A stretch of DNA of 64,000 nt, from assembly GCA_045110695.1 (NCBI GenBank), contig JBGCGH010000034.1:6233-70232 (forward strand), written 5' to 3'. This document shows, one piece after another, positions 2,744-13,707 of the stretch. How positions within the stretch are numbered: the first letter of the stretch is position 1; every line of letters begins with the position of its first letter. The notes beneath the pieces are model-generated. The model had not been told where the DNA came from and made no database searches. It worked only from the letters and a program-made list of their open reading frames with translations. This DNA is from Bdellovibrionales bacterium. GTDB lineage: Bacteria; Bdellovibrionota; Bdellovibrionia; Bdellovibrionales; UBA840. Both the position numbers and the translations under genes were made by a program.

Positions 2744-3052
2744 TCAATTACAAGATAACATTGCTGAATCAAGTAGTGGAATTTTATTTTTTAATTCATC
2801 CAGCTCAAAATCATAGATTCGTAAAGTTTTTCTTCTACTTTGCCCACCCTTTAGGATTTCCACCCTAGACTTGGAGCGGCTAAGATGACTAGCCACAAAC
2901 CGAACTAACTCTTCATTTGCCTTTCCGTCTATAGGTGTTGATTTTAGACGAATTTTCAACAGACCATCGTGTAGTCCTGCTACTTCAGACGTCTTTGCTC
3001 CCGGCTGAACATATATTTTAAAATCTAGACTCTTCAATGGGCTCCTAAGCAA
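2744..3052 (-). CDS. yggU: YggU / DUF167 (UPF0235) family protein
   Basis: YVQPGAKTSEVAGLHDGLLKIRLKSTPIDGKANEELVRFVASHL...RVEILKGGQSRRK matches the YggU pattern. Confidence 0.8.
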   Translation of the reverse strand: MLRSPLKSLDFKIYVQPGAKTSEVAGLHDGLLKIRLKSTPIDGKANEELVRFVASHLSRSKSRVEILKGGQSRRKTLRIYDFELDELKNKIPLLDSAMLSCN

Positions 3053-3270: not shown

Positions 3271-3933
3271 ATGAATTTAAAGTGGATATCCGTTTTCTCA
3301 ATACTTTTACTAAGTCTTGGTCTGTCGGCTCAAAACATACGGCCAGCCGGTCTTAATGCTTACGCAGGATTTGGATTTGCTGAATATGATATAAGTTCTC
3401 CTGCTTCTAACTTTACCATGGATCGAGGAGTTTTTGCTTCTATCTCGGGGGAAAGAGGCTTTGAGTTTTTAAATTCTTATCTGACTTTTTCCATCAACCT
3501 ACTTCAAAGTAAAGGACAGGCGGACTACAACTACACACCTCTATCCGCACCGTCAGTAGTAGCACCTGGAGTTGATTTTGACTCTAATCTTTTCCAGTTT
3601 GGTTTAGGCTATAAAATAAAGATATTTGATGGCGGTTGGTTTAGGCCGTATGCGGAAATCGGATATCTTGGTGGGTACTATCAGATTGAATATTCTAACG
3701 TAAGCTCTAACATCACTTCTGGCAGTGCCTCAGACGCTAAGACTTCTGACAGCCTATTTGATTCTGGAGGCTATTTAGAAGCCGGTGTAGAAATTGATTT
3801 TAGCGCTGAGTTTGGGCTGAAAATAGCTGCAAGACAGGCTGACATGAAGACTGGCGAACTAGATACACTAGATCAATCAGCAATCGACTATAAAACTACC
3901 GTAGTTTTCTTAAGTGTATTGAAAGCCTTTTAA
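3271..3933 (+). CDS. outer-membrane beta-barrel protein (OmpA-like barrel / porin family type)
   Basis: Signal peptide MNLKWISVFSILLLSLGLSA. Gly/aromatic alternating strands. C-terminal residue is F. Confidence 0.6.
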   Translation: MNLKWISVFSILLLSLGLSAQNIRPAGLNAYAGFGFAEYDISSPASNFTMDRGVFASISGERGFEFLNSYLTFSINLLQSKGQADYNYTPLSAPSVVAPGVDFDSNLFQFGLGYKIKIFDGGWFRPYAEIGYLGGYYQIEYSNVSSNITSGSASDAKTSDSLFDSGGYLEAGVEIDFSAEFGLKIAARQADMKTGELDTLDQSAIDYKTTVVFLSVLKAF

Positions 3934-4223: not shown

Positions 4224-4766
4224 ATGAAAATAGCGCCGATAGATATAGCGCATAAATCGTTTAAAAAGAAAACTTTTGGATTTGATACTGAAGAGGTAAT
4301 GGATTTTTTAAGAGCCATTGCTGATGAGTATGAAGATGTAATTCGCGATAGAAATAATCTTAAAGAGCAAATGCGCGACAAAGAACTTTCTATTTTAGAG
4401 TACAAAGAAAGAGACAAAACTCTTCGTGACACAATCACTACGGCTCAGAGAATGTCTGTTAAGGTTCGTGAAGACGCGGAAAAAGAAGCTAAGCTAATAT
4501 TAAATGACGCGAATCAAAAAGCTGACTTAATAGTTAAGGACGCTAGAGATTCTTTAAAAGCTGTTTATCAAGAAATTACAGATATTAAAAGAGCAAAGAT
4601 CCAGTTTGAAAGCCATATGAAGGCTCTTATTCAAACTCATCTAAAAATTATGGAACAAGGCAACGACTTGACTCCCAACTTTGATTTGTCTTCGTCCAAG
4701 AAAACTACAAACACGAAAGATAACTCGGTGAAAGTTACTACACCGGTATCTCCTGTTTCTATGTAA
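4224..4766 (+). CDS. divIVA: DivIVA domain cell-division protein
   Basis: N-terminus MKIAPIDIAHKSFKKKTFGFDTEEVMDFLRAIADEYE is the canonical DivIVA motif, followed by coiled coil. Confidence 0.85.
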   Translation: MKIAPIDIAHKSFKKKTFGFDTEEVMDFLRAIADEYEDVIRDRNNLKEQMRDKELSILEYKERDKTLRDTITTAQRMSVKVREDAEKEAKLILNDANQKADLIVKDARDSLKAVYQEITDIKRAKIQFESHMKALIQTHLKIMEQGNDLTPNFDLSSSKKTTNTKDNSVKVTTPVSPVSM

Positions 4767-4790
4767 TTTAAATTTCATTATAACTTCATG

Positions 4791-4820
4791 GCCTAACTAT
4801 TTATAGTTAGGCTTTTTTTT
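4791..4820 (+). terminator. rho-independent terminator after divIVA
   Basis: GCCTAACTA / TAGTTAGGC 9-bp stem, 4-nt loop, then T8. Confidence 0.8.
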
Positions 4821-4822
4821 GT

Positions 4823-5569
4823 TTAGCGAAGCAACTCAACTTCTACTATCAAGCGCGGATCTTGATTTTCAGTGTGCAGCACTTGCTTGTATTTACCCAC
4901 TTTTATGAATCCATTTTGAGCAAGTACTTGAAAGAACGGGGTTCTTTGAATTGCATTCCTAATAAGAGAATCTCTTTTAAAAGAAGTAAGAGAGTTAAGA
5001 AGAACGGAAAAGTGATTCACATAAAGCTCTGTTAGCTTATCCTCTAATAGCAGACGACTCCTAGTATGGAGGCTCAAAACCTGTTCTAAACTTTCTCTAA
5101 GTTCTTTTGAAGATTCGATGGAGCGCATAAGGTTTGTTAAAAATAAAATCGTATTATCCATGGCAAGTTCTACAGATACTTTTTTTACATGACTAAATTG
5201 GGATAAAAAGCTGGTCGCCATTGCTGATGATAGACCTAAGCGTTGGTACTCAGGCATCATATGAGCCCATTCAATATGAATACTCTTTTGGGACCTGGTG
5301 GAATAGAATGCGTTTGCGAAACCCACTTGCCTTGGCTCTAATCTACCATTATTAGATATCTCATGAAGAAAAGCACGAGCCTCAAAAAACTTTTCCCCGC
5401 TTATCGGGTTTTCTACCTGTCTCAATTCAAAGTGGAAATTTTTATCGTTTTTCTCATACATGAGGCTGCATTGCTCAAGCGCAGCACTTAAATCTAAAGA
5501 AAAAATATAAAGTATGAGAAATAGAAAACGAGTCAAAAAAAGTAATTCTCCGAACAATTGTTTATCCAA
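4823..5569 (-). CDS. hypothetical protein, possible N-terminally anchored GNAT-like acetyltransferase
   Basis: Hydrophobic N-terminus. IHIEWAHMMPEYQRLGLSSAMATSFL resembles GNAT motif A (Q/R-x-x-G-x-G/A). Weak call. Confidence 0.4.
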   Translation of the reverse strand: MDKQLFGELLFLTRFLFLILYIFSLDLSAALEQCSLMYEKNDKNFHFELRQVENPISGEKFFEARAFLHEISNNGRLEPRQVGFANAFYSTRSQKSIHIEWAHMMPEYQRLGLSSAMATSFLSQFSHVKKVSVELAMDNTILFLTNLMRSIESSKELRESLEQVLSLHTRSRLLLEDKLTELYVNHFSVLLNSLTSFKRDSLIRNAIQRTPFFQVLAQNGFIKVGKYKQVLHTENQDPRLIVEVELLR

Positions 5570-5654: not shown

Positions 5655-6515
5655 TTATTTCCCTCTGTATTGGTGATTAGATAGATTTTTATTTCTTTGT
5701 ACGGACTTCTCAAAGCTCATCGCTAAAGTTCCCTCTAGCTCGAGTTCTCTCATTTTTTCCAATCCAGCCTCAGTAACACCCTTTTTAGAAGTTACCTGAT
5801 TTCTAAGCTCATCCAAACTAATGTTTTCTTGTAATTCTGCCAAAAGAGCAGCCCCTCTGAAGGTCTTAATAGTCATTGCCCTGGCAGAGGCTGCATCAAA
5901 GCCCCTCTCCACTAACCACTCTTCCCAGTATGTCATGAGCTCAAAAACAAAGCCCGTTCCACTGGCGCAAGCCACCATTAATGCATCGAACTCGTCCCCC
6001 TCTTCAACTTTGACAACAAGTCCAAGAGGAGAAAGTAATTCTACAATGATATCTTCAATAAGCGAGTCAGATTCTAAACTACTAATACCTATAACGCCCT
6101 CACCTACTCGGGATGCGGTGTTTGGCATGACCCTAATAATACTTTTTGTAGTTGGAATTAGACTCTTTAGTTCGTCTAAAGAAATACCAGCAGCTAGGCT
6201 GATAACGATTTTATCTTCGTTAAATGCATGAACTATACTCTCTATTGCACTTGGTAGATCCTGAGGCTTCATCGCTAAAAATATGATGTCGCTCTCATCT
6301 ATAAGCTCTTCGTTGGTTGGATAAACTTGAAGACCTTCATAACTCGTTTTTAGTTTTGCCATTTTCCCTGGCGTGCGATTTGATAATCCAATTTGGTCAG
6401 GAGTTACCGTACCGTCTTCCATCAGGGCTTCAATAATAGCCTGAGCCAAGTTTCCAGCTCCAATGAAGCCTACTTTTTTTCTTTTCACTAGTCCACGTGC
6501 TATTGGGTTGGCCAT
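5655..6515 (-). CDS. proC: pyrroline-5-carboxylate reductase
   Basis: VGFIGAGNLAQAIIEAL Rossmann motif and ProC-like C-terminus (VTSKKGVTEAGL). Start set to ATG 6515 (MANPIARG). Confidence 0.9.
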   Translation of the reverse strand: MANPIARGLVKRKKVGFIGAGNLAQAIIEALMEDGTVTPDQIGLSNRTPGKMAKLKTSYEGLQVYPTNEELIDESDIIFLAMKPQDLPSAIESIVHAFNEDKIVISLAAGISLDELKSLIPTTKSIIRVMPNTASRVGEGVIGISSLESDSLIEDIIVELLSPLGLVVKVEEGDEFDALMVACASGTGFVFELMTYWEEWLVERGFDAASARAMTIKTFRGAALLAELQENISLDELRNQVTSKKGVTEAGLEKMRELELEGTLAMSFEKSVQRNKNLSNHQYRGK

Positions 6516-6571
6516 GGTACTCTCTTTCTTTTTACAGGAGTTACACAAGTAACAATTGCTAAGATTTAATT

Positions 6572-7813
6572 CTACTGTCTTTTTCCGAAAAGAGCACTAC
6601 CTATTCTTATAATAGTAGCACCTTCCTCCATCGCAACCTGAAAATCTCCACTCATTCCCATGGATAGCTCCAGCACTGGTGAAGACTTAAGCTCATTTTG
6701 TAGGCGAGTTTGTAGGCCCTTCAAAAGCTTAAAATAAGGCCTAGCTCCCTCGGGAGAATCTGTTTCCGGAGGGACAGTCATTAAACCGCAAAGATCTACA
6801 TTGCTCATCTCATCAGCAAGCCTTGCTAAACGAAAAAGTTCGGCCTGATCCGAGCCTGAGCGCCCTTCTTTCTGAGTAAAATCAACCTGTAGTAGAATTT
6901 TTTGAATCTTATCAATTTTTGAAGCCTCTTTCTGTATTTGTAGTAACAAAGACTCTCGATCTACACTCTGAATGAGTTCTACAAAGGCTATAATTTTTTT
7001 TACTTTGTTGGTTTGTAAGCCACCTATAAAATGCCATTTTAAATCCAGGTGCTTTAGAGCCTCGTACTTTTTCTCTAGCTCCTGTACATAGTTTTCACCA
7101 AAGATTTTTTGCCCCGACTTGAATGCAGCCTCTATCATTTCGACAGGCTTAGTCTTACTTACAGCTAGCATTTGTACTCTCTGCTCGGCAGTGGATATTT
7201 TCGACTCAAATTTTTGAATCCTTTGTGCCAAACCAAAGATACTTTTTCTTGTTAATAGCTCAGTAGTTTCCTCAATAGGTAAACCAATCACATTCTCTAG
7301 ACTTCCGTCGAGCTCTCTTACAAATTTACCCGCCTGAGACTGAATCCCGTAACTTCCCGCTTTATCCAACCAGTCCTCGGTATCCAGGTAATTTTCCAGC
7401 TCAAAATCACTAATTTCTCTGAAACGAACCACACTGGTAACTAGTCTAGTTTCAAAGTCACCAGTTTTAGAATTCATTAAGCATATCGATGACTTAACCT
7501 CGTGTGTATTCCCAGACAGCATTTTCATTACTTTCTTGGCTTCCGCGCGGTTGGCGGGCTTTCCTAATCTATGGTCTTGGTAAATGACCATTGTATCTGA
7601 GGCCAAAACAAAAACTTCTTTATTAAATAGCTCATATTGGTCCACTGAGGCACTAGCCTTTTGCCTAGCTAGATCCTCCAAAGCGGCATCCAAGCTAAGG
7701 TTTTTATCGAGTTTTTCCGATAACTTAGGTGGAAGTATCTCAAATTGATATCCTAAATTTTCGAGGATTTTTTTTCTTCGTGGGGATTGAGATGCCAAAA
7801 CAAACTGTGCCAT
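6572..7813 (-). CDS. fusion protein: Maf-like nucleotide pyrophosphatase (N) + YggS-family PLP-binding protein (C)
   Basis: N-terminal half: LASQSPRRKKIL...LASDTMV...DKAGSYGIQ (Maf). C-terminal half: LLAVSKTKP (PLP Lys)...FGENYVQE...WHFIGGLQTNKVK...ELSMGMSGDFQVAMEEGATIIRIGSALFG (YggS). Confidence 0.85.
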   Translation of the reverse strand: MAQFVLASQSPRRKKILENLGYQFEILPPKLSEKLDKNLSLDAALEDLARQKASASVDQYELFNKEVFVLASDTMVIYQDHRLGKPANRAEAKKVMKMLSGNTHEVKSSICLMNSKTGDFETRLVTSVVRFREISDFELENYLDTEDWLDKAGSYGIQSQAGKFVRELDGSLENVIGLPIEETTELLTRKSIFGLAQRIQKFESKISTAEQRVQMLAVSKTKPVEMIEAAFKSGQKIFGENYVQELEKKYEALKHLDLKWHFIGGLQTNKVKKIIAFVELIQSVDRESLLLQIQKEASKIDKIQKILLQVDFTQKEGRSGSDQAELFRLARLADEMSNVDLCGLMTVPPETDSPEGARPYFKLLKGLQTRLQNELKSSPVLELSMGMSGDFQVAMEEGATIIRIGSALFGKRQ

Positions 7814-7841
7814 AGCGCAGTTTTACAACCTTAGAGAAAAA

Positions 7842-8744
7842 ATGGGAAGTGCTGAATATTTATTAATTCTAGGATTGGTTCTTTTGGGAGCAGCTGTTTA
7901 CAATATCGTAACGGTAGTGCTTGGTAGTAGCCAAAGCGCAGATCTTGTTTGGGCCTCAGAAGAAGAGCCTGAGAAATCTAAAAACGGCTTCATTGAGTTC
8001 TCCCGCCCCCTTGCCCACTTCACCTCTATGGGATTAGCAAAAAAAGTGAAGTCTCTCACCTACCGTGAAAAAGTAAATAAGCAAATCAAAGTAGCAGGTT
8101 TATCTAGGGTCATTAACGTAGATGAGTTCATTGGGATTCAAGTATTCTGGGGTTTCTTCTTTCCACTGATCTCTTTGATAATCAATTTTACTTTCGAACT
8201 AGGTTTCTCGCCCCTTCTGATCTTGGGATTGAGTGCCTTTGGAATCTATGTCCCAAAAATGTATGCGGAACAAACAAAGGCAGCTCGTTATAAGAGTGTG
8301 ATTTTGGATCTTCCTTTCTTTATAGACCTTCTCGCTCTAGCGACTGAGGCTGGGCTAGAGTTTATAAATGCAATTCAACAAGTGGTTGATAAAGCAGGTA
8401 AAGATTCTGTATTAGCCAGTGAATTTGACTTAGTTTTACGTGATATAAAACTTGGACGCTCTAGACAGGAAGCAATGAGAGACATGGCGGCTCGCTTAGA
8501 CATCTCGGAAATAACAAGTTTTGTAGCAGTGATAATTGACTCAAGTGAAACCGGTGTGAGTATTGGTAAAGTACTTCAACAGCAAAGTGAGCAAATGAGA
8601 TTGGAGAGGTTCTCCAGAGCAGAAAAAGAAGGAGCCAAGGCTTCTCAGATGATGCTGATCCCTATGATGGTTTTTATAATGCCAGCCGTTTTTATAATGG
8701 TGTTTGGACCAGTGGTTCTACAGTTTTTAGGACAAGGTAATTGA
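7842..8744 (+). CDS. tadC: type II secretion system F-family / TadC-like Flp pilus platform protein
   Basis: 300 aa with N-terminal TM, central TM pair, T2SSF-like segment LPFFIDLLALATEAGLEFINAIQQV and C-terminal TM. Size and topology match TadB/TadC. Confidence 0.7.
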   Translation: MGSAEYLLILGLVLLGAAVYNIVTVVLGSSQSADLVWASEEEPEKSKNGFIEFSRPLAHFTSMGLAKKVKSLTYREKVNKQIKVAGLSRVINVDEFIGIQVFWGFFFPLISLIINFTFELGFSPLLILGLSAFGIYVPKMYAEQTKAARYKSVILDLPFFIDLLALATEAGLEFINAIQQVVDKAGKDSVLASEFDLVLRDIKLGRSRQEAMRDMAARLDISEITSFVAVIIDSSETGVSIGKVLQQQSEQMRLERFSRAEKEGAKASQMMLIPMMVFIMPAVFIMVFGPVVLQFLGQGN

Positions 8745-9094
8745 AAATGAGATTGATGAACAGAGACAAAAATTTAGCCCTTAGCGAGCATGTGCAATTG
8801 GCACAAAGCTTTTCTACGCGCTTGTTTGGTCTGATGGGTAAAAAAGATATGCGCTCGGTGGATGAGACTTACCTTTTTCAACCTTGTACAAGTATTCATA
8901 CTTGCTTCATGAATTTCCCCATTGATGTGATATTTTTAGACAAACAAAAAGTAGTTAAGAAAATATATTGGAATATGAAGCCGTGGCGATTTACAAAAAT
9001 TCATTGGAGCTGTGACGCAGCACTAGAGTTTAAATCCGGCTATTTAAACAAAACTATGATCGAGGAAGGAGATGCTTTGTATGTGGAGTCTTAA
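8741..9094 (+). CDS. DUF192 family protein
   Basis: RLFGLMGKK...FQPCTSIHTCFMNFPIDVIFLDKQKVV...ALEFKSGYL...GD matches the DUF192 pattern. 4-nt overlap with tadC-like gene. Confidence 0.7.
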   Translation: MKMRLMNRDKNLALSEHVQLAQSFSTRLFGLMGKKDMRSVDETYLFQPCTSIHTCFMNFPIDVIFLDKQKVVKKIYWNMKPWRFTKIHWSCDAALEFKSGYLNKTMIEEGDALYVES

Positions 9095-10697
9095 AGTATT
9101 ATCTGGTCCTCTTACTGGTCAGGAAATAAAGTTAAGAAGTGGTGAAAACAGTGTGGGTCGCCATCCGGAAAATAGTATACCTATTAAATCTGGAGGAGTG
9201 TCTAAGCATCATTGTAAATTTATGGTGAACGGAAATTCTGTTTCTGTGAGTGATCTTGGTTCTTCTAACGGAACCTTTGTAAATGGAATGCGGGTTCAAA
9301 ATTGTATATTACAACTTGGAGATAGAATTGGCATCCATGAGAACTTAGTAGAGTTGCAATATCAGATTGCACCTAATATGGGTATGGGTGGAAATGCAAA
9401 TATGGGATCCTCCGCTGAATGGAGTGGAAGCGCAGCACCTGATATGCATGCAAACCCAGGATTTGCAGCCGAAGAGATTCATGATCCCATTCAAATGAAC
9501 GCAGATGGACCACAGCTAGACTCCATTACCAAGCCACCAGAAAATATAAAAGAAACAATTGATCAATATGTTGAAAAAGTAATGCTTCCTGGTGTTTACA
9601 AACTGGCAGAGATTTTTGAATTTAGAATGGTAATTTTTGGAATGTTGATTACCTTAATATTAAGTATCACCCTACTTTCTGTGATACCTATGATCCAAAT
9701 TACTCAAGATACCATAATTAAAGAAAGTAGCCGACGAGCTGTCTCCATTGCCAGAAGTTTAGTTAAAGTAAACCAAAGCATTCTACAGAGAGGTATGAAA
9801 TCTCAGTTAACTACTAGTTTCGCTGAGAAGGAAGATGGAGTGCTTGCCGCCTTAATCATTAACGCCGAAGACGGTAGTGTAATAGCTCCGGCCAACCGAA
9901 TTGGAGCCTACAAAAACCTTCCATTCATACATAGTGCCAGAAAAAAAGGCGAAGAACATATTAAGAAGATAAGTGATGACCAGGTTGGCGCAAGTATCCC
10001 AATCAGAACCTATGATGCTAGTAGTGGGAGCTATGAAATTTCTAGTTATGCTGTTGTACTGTACTCTTTAGGAAACTTAGCCATGGACGATGGAAGAGCT
10101 ATAAGTCTCTTTATACAAACACTGGGAATGGCTCTTATAGTTGGTTTTATATTCTACTTTTTCATCTTTAAATTAGCAGAAAGACCATATCAGTATTTAA
10201 ATCGTCAAATTGATTTAGCAAACAAGGGTGAAATCATGAGTATTGAGCCTGAGTTTAATATGCCGGTAATGAAACCGCTCATTACAAACATAAACAATCT
10301 TGTAAATCAAGTCGCTAACTCCTCTGGAAATGATGATGGCCCCATGAGCTTCACTGACAGAAGTTTCGAAGTAGAGAATTTAGTAAAAGTGATCGGACAA
10401 GCCTGTATGGTAATAGACATAGACAAAAAAATCTTAGCCATGAACAGTGCTGCGGAGGAAATTACAAATGAATCTGCCTCCAGTCTAGTGGGTAGTAGTA
10501 CTGAAGCTATACTTGATGAAAGTCTGAAGCTGAACTTAGACGACCTCTTAGATAGAGTAGTGGCCGAATCCCATATGATTCAATCCAATACTTTAGAATT
10601 TAATGGACTAGAGATGGATGTCGATGCACAGGCCATTGGTGGCAGTGAAGGTATTGAGTATATTCTAGTCTGCATTAATGAAAAAGGAGGCTTCTGA
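9081..10697 (+). CDS. FHA-domain membrane protein (FHA, TM, extracytoplasmic region, TM, PAS-like C-terminus)
   Basis: FHA: VGRHPENSIPI...VSKHHCKF...VSDLGSSNGTFVNG. TM helices near aa 190 and aa 345. C-terminal MVIDIDKKILAMNSAAEEIT resembles a PAS N-cap. Start set to ATG 9081, 10 nt after GGAG. Confidence 0.8.
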   Translation: MWSLKVLSGPLTGQEIKLRSGENSVGRHPENSIPIKSGGVSKHHCKFMVNGNSVSVSDLGSSNGTFVNGMRVQNCILQLGDRIGIHENLVELQYQIAPNMGMGGNANMGSSAEWSGSAAPDMHANPGFAAEEIHDPIQMNADGPQLDSITKPPENIKETIDQYVEKVMLPGVYKLAEIFEFRMVIFGMLITLILSITLLSVIPMIQITQDTIIKESSRRAVSIARSLVKVNQSILQRGMKSQLTTSFAEKEDGVLAALIINAEDGSVIAPANRIGAYKNLPFIHSARKKGEEHIKKISDDQVGASIPIRTYDASSGSYEISSYAVVLYSLGNLAMDDGRAISLFIQTLGMALIVGFIFYFFIFKLAERPYQYLNRQIDLANKGEIMSIEPEFNMPVMKPLITNINNLVNQVANSSGNDDGPMSFTDRSFEVENLVKVIGQACMVIDIDKKILAMNSAAEEITNESASSLVGSSTEAILDESLKLNLDDLLDRVVAESHMIQSNTLEFNGLEMDVDAQAIGGSEGIEYILVCINEKGGF

Positions 10698-10708
10698 TTT
10701 CTAACGCG

Positions 10709-11638
10709 ATGAATGTTCAACCTACAGGTTACTTCAAGCTGAGTATAGCGACTGGCCCAGATCAGGGTGCAAGCTATGCTATTACACAGCCACGCGTAAA
10801 AATTGGCAGAAGCGCTCAGAACGATATAGTATTAACAGACCCAAAAGTATCAAGAGAACATGCTATCTTAAACCTGAAAAATAATGGGCTTTATATTCAG
10901 GGTTCCGGTGGAAAGAAAATAATCATAAATGGGCATGAACTAGACAATGGAATTTTAGCACCTGGATCTCAGGTTACTATCGGAGAAACCGTTTTTTCCG
11001 TGAGTCTTGAAGTACATCAGGCCCCTGTTGCATCGACCTACAAAAATTTAAATCAGCAGCAAGCTAGCCCTGATTTCTCAGCTGCTGAACCTGAAAAGTC
11101 TAAATTATTCTTTTATATTATACTTGGACTTGTAGTCGTTGTTGGTATCTTACTTTCACAGTCAGGATCTAAGGATGATGAGGAGTTTATCTTTAGAGAT
11201 GATGAAGCTATTCAAGAAGAAATTTTAAATTTAGAGCAAAGAAAAGATGAGCTGAAACGTGAATACTATAACAGTGGTAGAAATAGCCAGCAATACATTC
11301 AGGCACAAAGTAACTATAAGCAAGGTTTTAGAGAATATAGAGAGGCGAATTACAAAAGAAGTATTAATTATTTCACAGCAGCACTCTCACAGTTTCCAAA
11401 TCACAAGTTGGCAGAAAGATATTTAGTACAGGCACAAAGGAAGTTAGAAGAAGAAATCCAAACCAGCCTTGCTAGAGGCAATAGTTTAAAAGAACAAGGT
11501 AAATATCGCCAAGCGGTAGCTGAATATAGACATGTATTAATTCTTGTTTCTGACAAAACAAGTGTTGCCTTTAAAGAAGCCACTAGCCTGATGGAAGAAT
11601 GCATCTTAAAACTTAAAATCAAAGGAGGAAGCTTATGA
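10709..11638 (+). CDS. FHA-domain membrane protein with TPR-like C-terminus
   Basis: FHA: IGRSAQNDIVLTDPKVSREHA. One TM (FFYIILGLVVVVGILL). C-terminal TPR-like helices. Confidence 0.8.
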   Translation: MNVQPTGYFKLSIATGPDQGASYAITQPRVKIGRSAQNDIVLTDPKVSREHAILNLKNNGLYIQGSGGKKIIINGHELDNGILAPGSQVTIGETVFSVSLEVHQAPVASTYKNLNQQQASPDFSAAEPEKSKLFFYIILGLVVVVGILLSQSGSKDDEEFIFRDDEAIQEEILNLEQRKDELKREYYNSGRNSQQYIQAQSNYKQGFREYREANYKRSINYFTAALSQFPNHKLAERYLVQAQRKLEEEIQTSLARGNSLKEQGKYRQAVAEYRHVLILVSDKTSVAFKEATSLMEECILKLKIKGGSL

Positions 11639-13707
11639 TGAAACTCAAAATCTTCCTTCATGCTGATATGGTTCAAGACCTAACACTTCTAATCAACAAG
11701 CAATACGTTATAGGAAGAAACTCTGAATGTGATATTGTTTTAGATGATCCAAAGGTTTCTAGACAGCATGCAAAAATCTACTTCGATGGTAGTCAGTGGA
11801 ATATGGAGCTTATCTCTAGGTTCGGAAAACTTAAAAAAGAAGGCTTTGATGTTGAATCGACTAAAATAGCCGATGAAGATGAGTTCAGCATATCTACATT
11901 TAAACTGATTTTTATTAAATCTGAAGATAGCCAATATGGCTCTAGCAGCCAATCTCAAGTGAGTTATGGGGTATCTGATATTTCTGAATCACCTCAGTTT
12001 TCAATGAGCGTAGCAGATCACCAAATGCCTGAATCAGAAGATATTGATGATTCGAACAGTGATGTAGATGATTTTTCTGAATTTAGAGATGAAGCCTCAA
12101 GTGCGATTCAACTAGAAGATACGAATGCTGGCTTTGGCGATAGTACTGCCGTAAATGTATCTTTAGGAGAACCATTTTTAAGGATAATCTATAAAACTGG
12201 TAAAGAAGATATGTATCGTCTTGAAGGAAATCATTGGGTAATTGGAAGAAGTGAAAAAATCGATGTAAGAGTTAAAGATAGTAGATGTAGTAGAAAGCAC
12301 ATTGTAGTTACCAAAGAAGGAACCGAGTTTTTCTTGAAAGACTTAGGTAGTTCTAATGGAACCTCAGTAAACTCAAGTAAAATTGGAAGAGAACAAAAAA
12401 TAGGAATTCAATCTGGCGACGAAATATTAATCGGTGACAGTATTTTGCGATTTGAATTAAGAGATCCTAATTTTGAAGCAAAAATAAACCAGCTGCCAGT
12501 TGTCATCCATAACTCCCCTATCAAGTTTGGTAACCAAGACATCATACCTATAGGCTCACCAGGAGCAATGGTTCCCCAATCACCAGGTGGAGCCTTGGGA
12601 CAAATCATTCCACAAAGAGGAATGGGTAAAAACACTAAAAATAAAAAAGTAATATATATTGCCGTAGCCTTAATTGCCGTGGCCGGGGTGTTTGGTTTGT
12701 CTGATGGTAAACCAAAAAATGAAACTAAGAACAGCAAAGAGATGGCTAGTAAAAAATCGCCATGGGATGCCTTGAGTTTTGAGCAGCAGGAGTTTATTAA
12801 AGCTCGATACAATACTGCTTATAATTTTTATATTCAGGGAAGCTATGAATTAGCTCTTACGGAGGTAGAAAAAATACACTCTATTCTACCTTCTGGATAT
12901 GTAGACAAAGAACTCCCAGACAAAAACTCAAAGCAGTTAGAAAAATTTTCTAGAACAGGAATTGAGAGAGAAAGAGAATTAAATAGAATCGCTGTACAAA
13001 AAAAGCAGCAGAGACTTTTTCAAGAAAAACTAGATGAACAAATGCAGAGATGTATAAATTTAGGTGCTCAAGCATCTAGTGCTCAATTACAAGAGTGTTT
13101 CTCATTTATTTTAGAGAATCAACCCAATAACCCTACAGCACTACAGATGATTTCGGCTGCAAAAGAGAGAGAGCAAAATAGGCTTCTTATGGCACAACAA
13201 CGTGCTACGCAACAGAGGTTGGCAGGAAAAGGAAGCGCGCTATACAACCAAGCTGTAGCCATTGAACGATCTGGTGACTTTCTTGACGCGATTGAGGCTT
13301 ATCAGGTTCATATAAGATCTAATTTCCCTGACCCTAGGAATTTGAAATCGAAAAGTCGACAAGCCATTGCGCAGCTAAAAAGTGGAATTAAAACAAAAAC
13401 AAGTAGTCTATATAATGAGGCGATAACAGCCTATGAAAACGATAATCATAGAAAGGCCCTAGAGCTTCTACAAAAGCTTCTCGAGATTGATCCGAGCAAT
13501 ATTGAAGCCGAAGATAAATCTCGTGAAATTAGCTCAAAGCTATACATAAAATTAAAATCGATTTATGAAGATTCTATTCTATTTGAAAACCATGGTGAAA
13601 TCACAGAGGCAAAAAATGCTTGGCTAAAGATTAAGGACCAGGACATTAAAGGTGGACGATACTACAAGAAGGTTGTTATCAAGCTTAGAAAGTATGGAAT
13701 TGAATAG
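11635..13707 (+). CDS. double-FHA-domain membrane protein with long TPR-like C-terminal region
   Basis: FHA1: IGRNSECDIVLDDPKVSRQHAKI. Acidic linker. FHA2: IGRSEKIDVRVKDSRCSRKHI...DLGSSNGTSVN. TM VIYIAVALIAVAGVFGL, then TPR-like repeats. ATGATG overlap with the upstream gene, AGGAGG 6 nt upstream. Confidence 0.8.
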   Translation: MMKLKIFLHADMVQDLTLLINKQYVIGRNSECDIVLDDPKVSRQHAKIYFDGSQWNMELISRFGKLKKEGFDVESTKIADEDEFSISTFKLIFIKSEDSQYGSSSQSQVSYGVSDISESPQFSMSVADHQMPESEDIDDSNSDVDDFSEFRDEASSAIQLEDTNAGFGDSTAVNVSLGEPFLRIIYKTGKEDMYRLEGNHWVIGRSEKIDVRVKDSRCSRKHIVVTKEGTEFFLKDLGSSNGTSVNSSKIGREQKIGIQSGDEILIGDSILRFELRDPNFEAKINQLPVVIHNSPIKFGNQDIIPIGSPGAMVPQSPGGALGQIIPQRGMGKNTKNKKVIYIAVALIAVAGVFGLSDGKPKNETKNSKEMASKKSPWDALSFEQQEFIKARYNTAYNFYIQGSYELALTEVEKIHSILPSGYVDKELPDKNSKQLEKFSRTGIERERELNRIAVQKKQQRLFQEKLDEQMQRCINLGAQASSAQLQECFSFILENQPNNPTALQMISAAKEREQNRLLMAQQRATQQRLAGKGSALYNQAVAIERSGDFLDAIEAYQVHIRSNFPDPRNLKSKSRQAIAQLKSGIKTKTSSLYNEAITAYENDNHRKALELLQKLLEIDPSNIEAEDKSREISSKLYIKLKSIYEDSILFENHGEITEAKNAWLKIKDQDIKGGRYYKKVVIKLRKYGIE

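Follow-up and report, generated by a model that had tools for sequence, protein, structure and literature searches.

A single gene joining Maf and YggS domains beside proC and divIVA in a Bdellovibrionales genome

A 64,000-nucleotide stretch of contig JBGCGH010000034.1 from a Bdellovibrionales bacterium (assembly GCA_045110695.1), here called the window, carries a gene in which a Maf nucleotide pyrophosphatase domain runs directly into a YggS pyridoxal phosphate (PLP)-binding domain. This maf-yggS gene is a genuine two-domain gene that probably arose from a conserved gene pair and whose halves may well cooperate. The initial annotation had read both domains in one open reading frame (ORF), and this stands: the frame runs uninterrupted over 413 aa, and no fewer than 160 fused homologues, taken from independent assemblies, keep the architecture. 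Taken singly, the halves are typical of their families, and it is the architecture that is unusual. The fusion, new to the searched literature, does not amount to a new kind of system, and any functional coupling of its halves is inferential.

Domains, active sites and predicted structure of the fusion

The fusion gene and its parts are as follows, in window coordinates.

6572..7813, (-) strand: maf-yggS fusion gene, 413 aa, ATG start, stop codon at 6572-6574, no internal stops
7247..7807, (-) strand: Maf domain, YhdE subtype, aa 3-189, with the codon of the catalytic D73 at 7595-7597
7232..7246, (-) strand: junction loop S-I-F-G-L, aa 190-194, from DSSP on the AlphaFold2 (AF2) model
6578..7231, (-) strand: YggS/PLPBP domain, aa 195-412, with the codon of the Schiff-base K220 at 7154-7156

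Two Pfam profiles are matched: Maf (PF02545) covers aa 3-189 with 1-186 of its 187 profile positions (E 1.1e-52; score 178.9 bits, cut-off 27), and Ala_racemase_N spans aa 201-412. The corresponding NCBIfam models are TIGR00172 (maf; 146.3 bits, cut-off 117.15) and TIGR00044 (YggS; 181.6 bits, cut-off 106.25), the latter matching aa 196-412 with profile positions 12-229 of 229. The motifs from which the fusion was originally recognised are present, with SQSPRR at aa 8, GIQ at aa 156, AVSKTKP at aa 217 and GMS at aa 386. The GC content of the two halves is 0.407 and 0.404, that of the window 0.389. Neither a second copy of maf or yggS nor a lexA gene was found in the 64-kb window, which also contains no tRNA genes and no Rfam matches.

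The active-site residues of both families can be traced in the window protein. The Maf signature S-R-E-K-D-K, which in YhdE comprises Ser10, Arg13, Glu33, Lys52, Asp70 and Lys82 (PMC3899018), is complete (S10, R13, E33, K52, D73, K85), as is the R-T-Q motif that sets the YhdE subfamily (Arg12, Thr71, Gln153) apart from the W-Q-E of YceF (PMC3899018), here R12, T74 and Q158. In Escherichia coli YggS the Schiff-base lysine is K36 and the PLP pocket includes N57, S205, R220 and T223 (PMC9601805, PMC11602438). Alignment to 1W8G yields K220, N241, S388, R403 and S406 as their counterparts in the window protein, alongside Y242, Q267, K270, M387 and R412; S406 takes the position of E. coli T223, where the human protein also has a serine. 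Invariant in all aligning fusions (n=160) are S10, R12, R13, E33, K52, D73, T74, K85 and Q158 of the Maf half and K220, Q267 and R403 of the YggS half. By their residues both active sites are intact, and they are preserved throughout the fused family; the two halves are likely to retain the biochemistry of their ancestors. A variant of the PLP site occurs in 45 of the 160 fusions, which have GESY instead of GENY and thus a serine at the position of window N241; in the alignment it is seen in fusions from outside the Bdellovibrionota (P0046, P0047, P0068, P0078). The equivalent residue of E. coli YggS, N57, hydrogen-bonds O3 of PLP (PMC9601805, PMC11602438).

The AF2 model of the fusion protein, built with 60 sequences, has a mean predicted local distance difference test score (pLDDT) of 91.6 and a predicted template modelling score (pTM) of 0.73. 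Foldseek superposes the Maf half on 4P0E and 4P0U (YhdE), 1EX2 (Maf) and 4HEB with template modelling (TM) scores of 0.91-0.94 and root mean square deviations of 1.5-2.1 Å, which identifies the ITPase-like alpha/beta fold, and the YggS half on 5NM8 (PipY), 5NLC and 6KZW with TM scores of 0.93-0.94, which identifies a fold-type III TIM barrel; no solved structure among the Foldseek matches spans both halves. According to DSSP, the last helix of the Maf half (aa 180-189) is followed by the loop at aa 190-194 and the first helix of the YggS half (aa 195-206), and the mean pLDDT of the junction is 83-87. The loop corresponds to nucleotides 7232-7246 and so agrees with the junction at about 7240 given in the initial annotation. 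In the model, helix 195-206 precedes the first strand of the barrel and corresponds to the extra N-terminal helix of the YggS/PLPBP fold.

The length of the junction was compared across fusions as the spacing between the GLP motif and the Schiff-base lysine. This spacing is 41 aa in the window protein and 23 to 103 aa, with a median of 51 aa, in the fused homologues, the median being about that of a simple end-to-end join of Maf and YggS. The YggS profile match of the window protein begins at model position 12, and its N-terminal helix region falls some 10 residues below such a join. The junction of the fusion gene contains no Met codon from which the YggS half could be translated separately; a TTG at L195 lacks a clear Shine-Dalgarno sequence.

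Fused and unfused homologues

An identical protein (100%) is present in an NCBI metagenome-assembled genome (MAG) of the Bdellovibrionales, under the product name 'YggS family pyridoxal phosphate-dependent enzyme'. The nearest relatives of the window protein share 34-44% identity, contain the same two domains and align from end to end. Fused homologues comprise 160 distinct proteins of at least 385 aa with 31-44% identity where measured, gathered from NCBI, JGI, ENA and Logan assemblies and including those found by a profile search seeded with more distant fusions. Where source names are given, the fusions of the clade that contains the window protein (see below) come from Bdellovibrionota, Bdellovibrionales and Pseudobdellovibrio, and the remaining ones from Myxococcota, Myxococcales and Bradymonadia. 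The initial annotation had noticed neither this occurrence in Myxococcota/Bradymonadia nor the descent from a conserved maf-yggS gene pair of the former Deltaproteobacteria, nor the one-sided public names (see below). The assumption that maf and yggS are normally separate genes is likewise upheld. An exhaustive HMMER search, run on 1.84 billion representatives at 50% identity, gave over 22,000 relatives with a single domain at E<=1e-10, against about 47 fused clusters (50% identity) among the best 150 matches.

As far as the literature was searched, the fusion is neither common nor characterised. The search found no paper in which Maf, YggS and fusion occur together, nor one that links COG0325 with Maf; the comparative genomics of COG0325 by Prunetti et al. 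2016 lay outside the search. A 2022 review of PLPBP describes all family members as single-domain proteins, and the fusions given in the Maf literature are those with methyltransferases only (PMC3899018). In databases, precomputed Pfam pairs and the JGI label 'MAF protein' make the fused architecture apparent, but public product names follow one half only, an annotation problem that masks the two-domain nature. Among the proteins P0001, P0017, P0020, P0399, P0427 and P0430, for instance, the names are 'YggS family...' or 'septum formation inhibitor Maf' at NCBI and 'MAF protein' at JGI.

Contigs of one genome per species were scanned for both halves; the matches listed are a sample of the unfused pairs and include no cultured Bdellovibrio genomes. 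Among them are at least 14 delta-lineage loci that match both halves. At all 14, yggS comes directly after maf, in the same orientation and no more than 300 nt away, and none of the 14 is a single ORF. Their hosts are Desulfobacterota (Olavius symbiont Delta4, Desulfomonilaceae, Desulfobacterales, Desulfobacteraceae, Smithella), Myxococcota (Enhygromyxa, Nannocystaceae, Polyangiales), Binataceae and one member of the Bdellovibrionaceae (UBA6776, locus L005). At the 65 listed loci from Bacteroidota, Gammaproteobacteria, Firmicutes and others the partner is absent from the flank, with one exception, in which it lies 2 kb off on the opposite strand. The genes of some pairs are very close. At loci L001 and L002 maf and yggS share a reading frame with one stop codon between them, and in L005 the end of one gene overlaps the other by 32 nt in another frame, where one indel would be enough for a fusion. 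That the L005 lineage is unfused is backed by stand-alone YggS proteins found independently. Citrifermentans bemidjiense Bem (complete genome, CP001124.1; L088, 1834-4693) has a gap of 10 nt. The gene order at this last locus is topA, a gene for a 435-aa GIDA-family protein, a small ORF, maf and yggS. The GIDA-family protein has the size expected of TrmFO, the folate-dependent tRNA m5U54 methyltransferase, and may be this enzyme. Since m5UTP is among the best substrates of YhdE-type Maf, this neighbour may make the modification whose free nucleotide Maf removes.

A neighbour-joining tree of the concatenated halves gives 83% bootstrap support only to a clade of Bdellovibrionota type, which unites the window protein with 46 other fusions and with the unfused L005 pair; the other 18 fusions are intermixed with unfused pairs at low support. 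The fusion therefore arose at least once and probably several times. It probably formed from a tightly packed or overlapping maf-yggS pair by loss of a stop codon or by a small indel.

Genomic context of the fusion gene

The neighbours of the fusion gene, again in window coordinates, are the following.

2744..3052, (-) strand: yggU (DUF167; Pfam DUF167 8.4e-23), last member of the HD100-type cluster
3271-3933, (+) strand: gene for an outer membrane protein (OMP) beta-barrel, in the rearranged segment 3271..5569
4224..4766, (+) strand: divIVA (Pfam DivIVA 1.3e-36), on the strand opposite to the fusion gene, proC and yggU
4823-5569, (-) strand: gene for a 248-aa orphan without Pfam matches, in the rearranged segment 3271..5569
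5655..6548, (-) strand: proC (pyrroline-5-carboxylate reductase; Pfam F420_oxidored, P5CR_dimer)
7814..7841, 28 nt: intergenic spacer that separates the divergently transcribed fusion and T2SSF genes, read from the sequence
7842..13707, (+) strand: T2SSF (TadC-like), DUF192 and three FHA-domain genes (Pfam), divergent neighbours

The yggS-proC-divIVA-yggU neighbourhood that the initial annotation had recognised matches the operon of Bdellovibrio bacteriovorus HD100 in its gene set (see below). The cluster is co-directional in the fused loci L081 and L082; that of the window has an inverted divIVA and two additional genes. The fusion gene and proC are co-directional in the window, and the same order is found in L081, L082 and the unfused L005. 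The start of proC lies 23 nt downstream of the fusion gene if the listed TTG is used; with the ATG at 6515 as the true start, the distance would be about 56 nt. No terminator-like site was found between the two genes, which are probably co-transcribed.

The segment between yggU and proC differs from that of the relatives. In L081, L082 and L005 divIVA is co-directional with proC, and this space contains neither the OMP gene nor the orphan. A strong terminator is present 3' of divIVA at 4790-4813, and no convincing inverted repeats were found to bound the inverted divIVA segment. The orphan contains a stretch, RLGLSSAM, that is reminiscent of GNAT motif A. On the far side of yggU, directly after it, a SOUL haem-binding-family gene is located at 2040-2747 on the (-) strand (E 1.1e-50); the E. 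coli yggU-rdgB cluster ends in the haem chaperone gene hemW, a parallel that may be coincidence.

Upstream, the order T2SSF-DUF192-three FHA genes is common to the window, the fused L081 and L082 and the unfused L005. Around the fusions P0007 (GCA_002381805.1) and P0045 this divergent set is followed by maf-yggS, proC and divIVA (and yggU). The spacer to the T2SSF gene is 28 nt in the window, 29 nt in L081 (5972-6000) and 33 nt in L005 (7965-7997), where the gene facing it is maf. With spacers of 28-33 nt in three distant genomes, at least one promoter would have to lie inside the neighbouring coding region; promoter-like matches in the window are no more frequent than in shuffled sequence. 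The yggS gene of E. coli is likewise divergent from a pilus/secretion gene, yggR, at a distance of 17 nt.

A different context is seen in the Myxococcota/Bradymonadia-type fusions. In three of three such contexts examined the fusion gene is divergent from lexA (L084, 3723-6033; L086, 4254-6251; L087, 4011-6362). The lexA/maf-yggS spacer of 126-360 nt contains repeated CTGAAC motifs, including the palindrome ACTGA-N8-TCAGT. These motifs resemble the Myxococcus LexA box. In Bacillus subtilis the division inhibitor gene yneA is divergent from lexA and under SOS control, and the analogous arrangement suggests that the Myxococcota-type fusions may be under SOS control as well. No lexA gene is located near the 14 unfused maf-yggS pairs.

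In the Gammaproteobacteria, yggS is associated with another pyrophosphatase gene. The order in E. coli K-12 is yggS-yggT-yggU-rdgB-hemW (L085, 3095098-3098403), and rdgB lies within 8 kb of yggS at eight gammaproteobacterial loci (L014, L026, L043, L044, L047, L048, L056, L063). In E. coli and at these eight loci yggS and rdgB cluster with yggT, proC and hemW. No rdgB was found in the flanks of the 14 listed maf-yggS loci. It looks as if YggS is paired with one house-cleaning pyrophosphatase or the other, either Maf or RdgB.

Possible functions and comparison with known systems

YhdE-type Maf proteins act on dTTP, UTP, m5UTP, pseudo-UTP and m5CTP, which they split by hydrolysis into the nucleoside monophosphate and pyrophosphate, with Asp70 as general base (PMC3899018), and their overproduction is proposed to lower dTTP and to delay division (PMC3899018, Figure 7 legend). 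Maf of B. subtilis is located close to the cell poles and has DivIVA, FtsW and ComGA as interaction partners, according to the account of Briley 2011 given in PMC3899018. YggS has no known catalytic activity; it binds PLP, changes conformation with PLP and binds RNA (tmRNA, RNase P RNA) in a PLP-modulated manner, and its mutant phenotypes respond to purine limitation. The invariant loop lysine K137 of E. coli YggS is key for RNA binding (Graziani 2024), and a lysine is present at this position in 154 of the 160 fused homologues. By homology, the N-terminal half of the window protein is predicted to be a Mg/Mn-dependent nucleoside triphosphate (NTP) pyrophosphatase acting on dTTP, UTP and modified pyrimidine NTPs (m5UTP, pseudo-UTP, m5CTP), in which D73 would be the general base, and the C-terminal half should be a YggS/PLPBP TIM barrel carrying PLP as a Schiff base on K220.

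The explanation favoured here, that of a genuine two-domain gene whose halves cooperate, would assign these activities to a common process. In the lineage of the window, the fusion gene would head a maf-yggS-proC unit within a division-associated cluster of proC, divIVA and yggU, and fusion would fix the 1:1 ratio and the proximity of two proteins that already act together. In the process envisaged, the pool of pyrimidine and modified nucleotides would be set by PLP (B6), amino-acid and RNA status and would in turn influence the timing of replication and division. This proposal is based on the binding of Maf to DivIVA in B. subtilis, of ProC to YggS and DivIVA in B. bacteriovorus, and of YggS to RNA.

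Several observations weigh against such cooperation. Adjacency of maf and yggS is not universal in the delta lineages, since yggS occurs without maf in L007, L011, L023, L040, L052 and L089. The unfused L005 nests within the fused clade and the junction varies from 23 to 103 aa, both of which are consistent with a fusion that is readily gained and lost, perhaps almost neutrally. Since divIVA is inverted in the window, its co-transcription with the fusion gene is ruled out there. At the position of K137, the E. coli residue important for RNA binding, the window protein has R318, a charge-conserving change, and the pTM of 0.73 is only suggestive as to the arrangement of the two domains.

It is highly improbable that a sequencing or assembly error, by loss of a stop codon or a frameshift, has joined adjacent maf and yggS genes. 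The source appears to be a MAG, and in L005, the closest unfused relative, a single indel would indeed suffice to fuse the overlapping genes. However, the single-ORF architecture recurs in the 160 distinct proteins from NCBI, JGI, ENA and Logan, which align end to end in one frame, and its presence in independent assemblies excludes an assembly-specific stop loss or frameshift without recourse to reads. The junction is moreover a short, confidently modelled loop between two helices, and GC content is even across both halves. A serious rival, although judged unlikely, is that translationally coupled neighbours were joined by accident, harmlessly, and that the halves work separately. Besides the highly variable junction and the interleaving of fused and unfused forms in the tree, with L005 inside the fused clade, this is in line with the overlapping or stop-only junctions, which make fusion mechanically easy, and with the fact that no shared substrate is known for Maf and YggS. 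On the other hand, the order and orientation of the pair are conserved in Desulfobacterota, Myxococcota, Binatota and Bdellovibrionota and not elsewhere among the listed loci, which argues for selection on co-expression; the fusion has been kept over a deep divergence, with at least 47 clusters at 50% identity; and the yggS-rdgB operons of Gammaproteobacteria provide an independent link to a structurally related pyrophosphatase.

A more specific form of coupling, rated as rather improbable, would make the YggS half a sensor of PLP, pyridoxine phosphate (PNP) or RNA that gates the Maf half, so that hydrolysis of pyrimidine NTPs, and by way of it replication or division, tracks B6, amino-acid or RNA status. 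YggS, with its conformational response to PLP and no known enzymatic activity, would suit the part of sensor, and Maf, whose overproduction is proposed to lower dTTP and delay division (PMC3899018, Figure 7 legend), that of effector. The very short inter-domain loop and the pTM of 0.73 are compatible with this, and both genomic contexts are division-related, with divIVA and proC in the window and lexA in the Myxococcota-type fusions. The proposal is purely inferential, however; unfused species manage with separate proteins, and linkers of 23 to 103 aa argue against one fixed allosteric geometry. Extending the cooperation favoured above, the recurrent link of YggS to a pyrophosphatase, Maf or RdgB, might speculatively, and with a rather low probability, be taken to indicate a role of YggS/PLPBP in nucleotide or RNA quality control, with the fusion as a PLP- or RNA-gated pyrimidine-NTP pyrophosphatase that times division. 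The divIVA/proC context in Bdellovibrionota, together with the apparently LexA-controlled context in Myxococcota, would fit such a role.

Maf and YggS/PLPBP are near-universal proteins with unresolved cellular roles. Defects in PLPBP cause B6-dependent epilepsy in humans, and papers of 2024 still call its molecular function unknown. The merging of a conserved gene pair into one polypeptide is regarded as classic Rosetta-stone evidence for joint work, and it provides research on PLPBP with a concrete candidate partner, a pyrimidine/modified-NTP pyrophosphatase. For Bdellovibrio, it would add a nucleotide-pool enzyme to the YggS-ProC-DivIVA-ParA3 network that is proposed to time the septation of the filament.

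The closest known counterpart of the cluster is the HD100 operon bd0466 (yggS)-bd0465 (proC)-bd0464 (divIVA)-bd0463 (yggU), in which bd0466 and bd0465 are co-transcribed with divIVA (Milner et al. 2020, PMC7186360). In two-hybrid experiments ProC of B. bacteriovorus interacts with YggS, DivIVA and ParA3; the paper makes no mention of Maf (PMC7186360). The window contains the same gene set, and L081 and L082 keep its order, whereas the window differs by the inverted divIVA and the two inserted genes. Bd0466 is described only as YggS. Judged by the eggNOG self-hit E-values in the supplement of PMC12546842, it is probably unfused, with about 230 aa; no HD100 protein was among the matches to the YggS of L005. 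The same supplement lists a separate, YceF-type Maf in HD100, Bd2448.

Compared with YhdE-type Maf proteins such as E. coli YhdE and B. subtilis Maf (BSU28050), the Maf half of the window protein gives a full-length profile match and has identical motifs and the same fold, and both are associated with genes for cell division or cell shape. Unlike the known proteins, which are stand-alone and about 190 aa long, it runs straight into the YggS barrel, and the fusion gene does not adjoin mreBCD. The YggS half shares TIGR00044, the Schiff-base lysine, the PLP pocket and the fold with the YggS/PLPBP/PipY/YlmE family (COG0325; 1W8G, 5NM8, 6KZW), and its neighbourhood matches known PLPBP contexts, which include proC, divIVA, yggU and a divergent pilus/secretion gene. 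It differs from this family, single-domain in reviews, in being fused, in its shortened N-terminal helix region and in the arginine at the K137 position. In human ASMTL and other eukaryotic Maf fusions, which belong to another lineage, the partner is an O-methyltransferase-like domain and not a PLP-binding barrel. In the E. coli yggS-yggT-yggU-rdgB-hemW cluster, YggS and YggU are again found together with a house-cleaning NTP pyrophosphatase of the ITPase/Maf-like fold, but there the genes are separate, yggT is included, and the dITP/XTP-specific RdgB takes the place of Maf.

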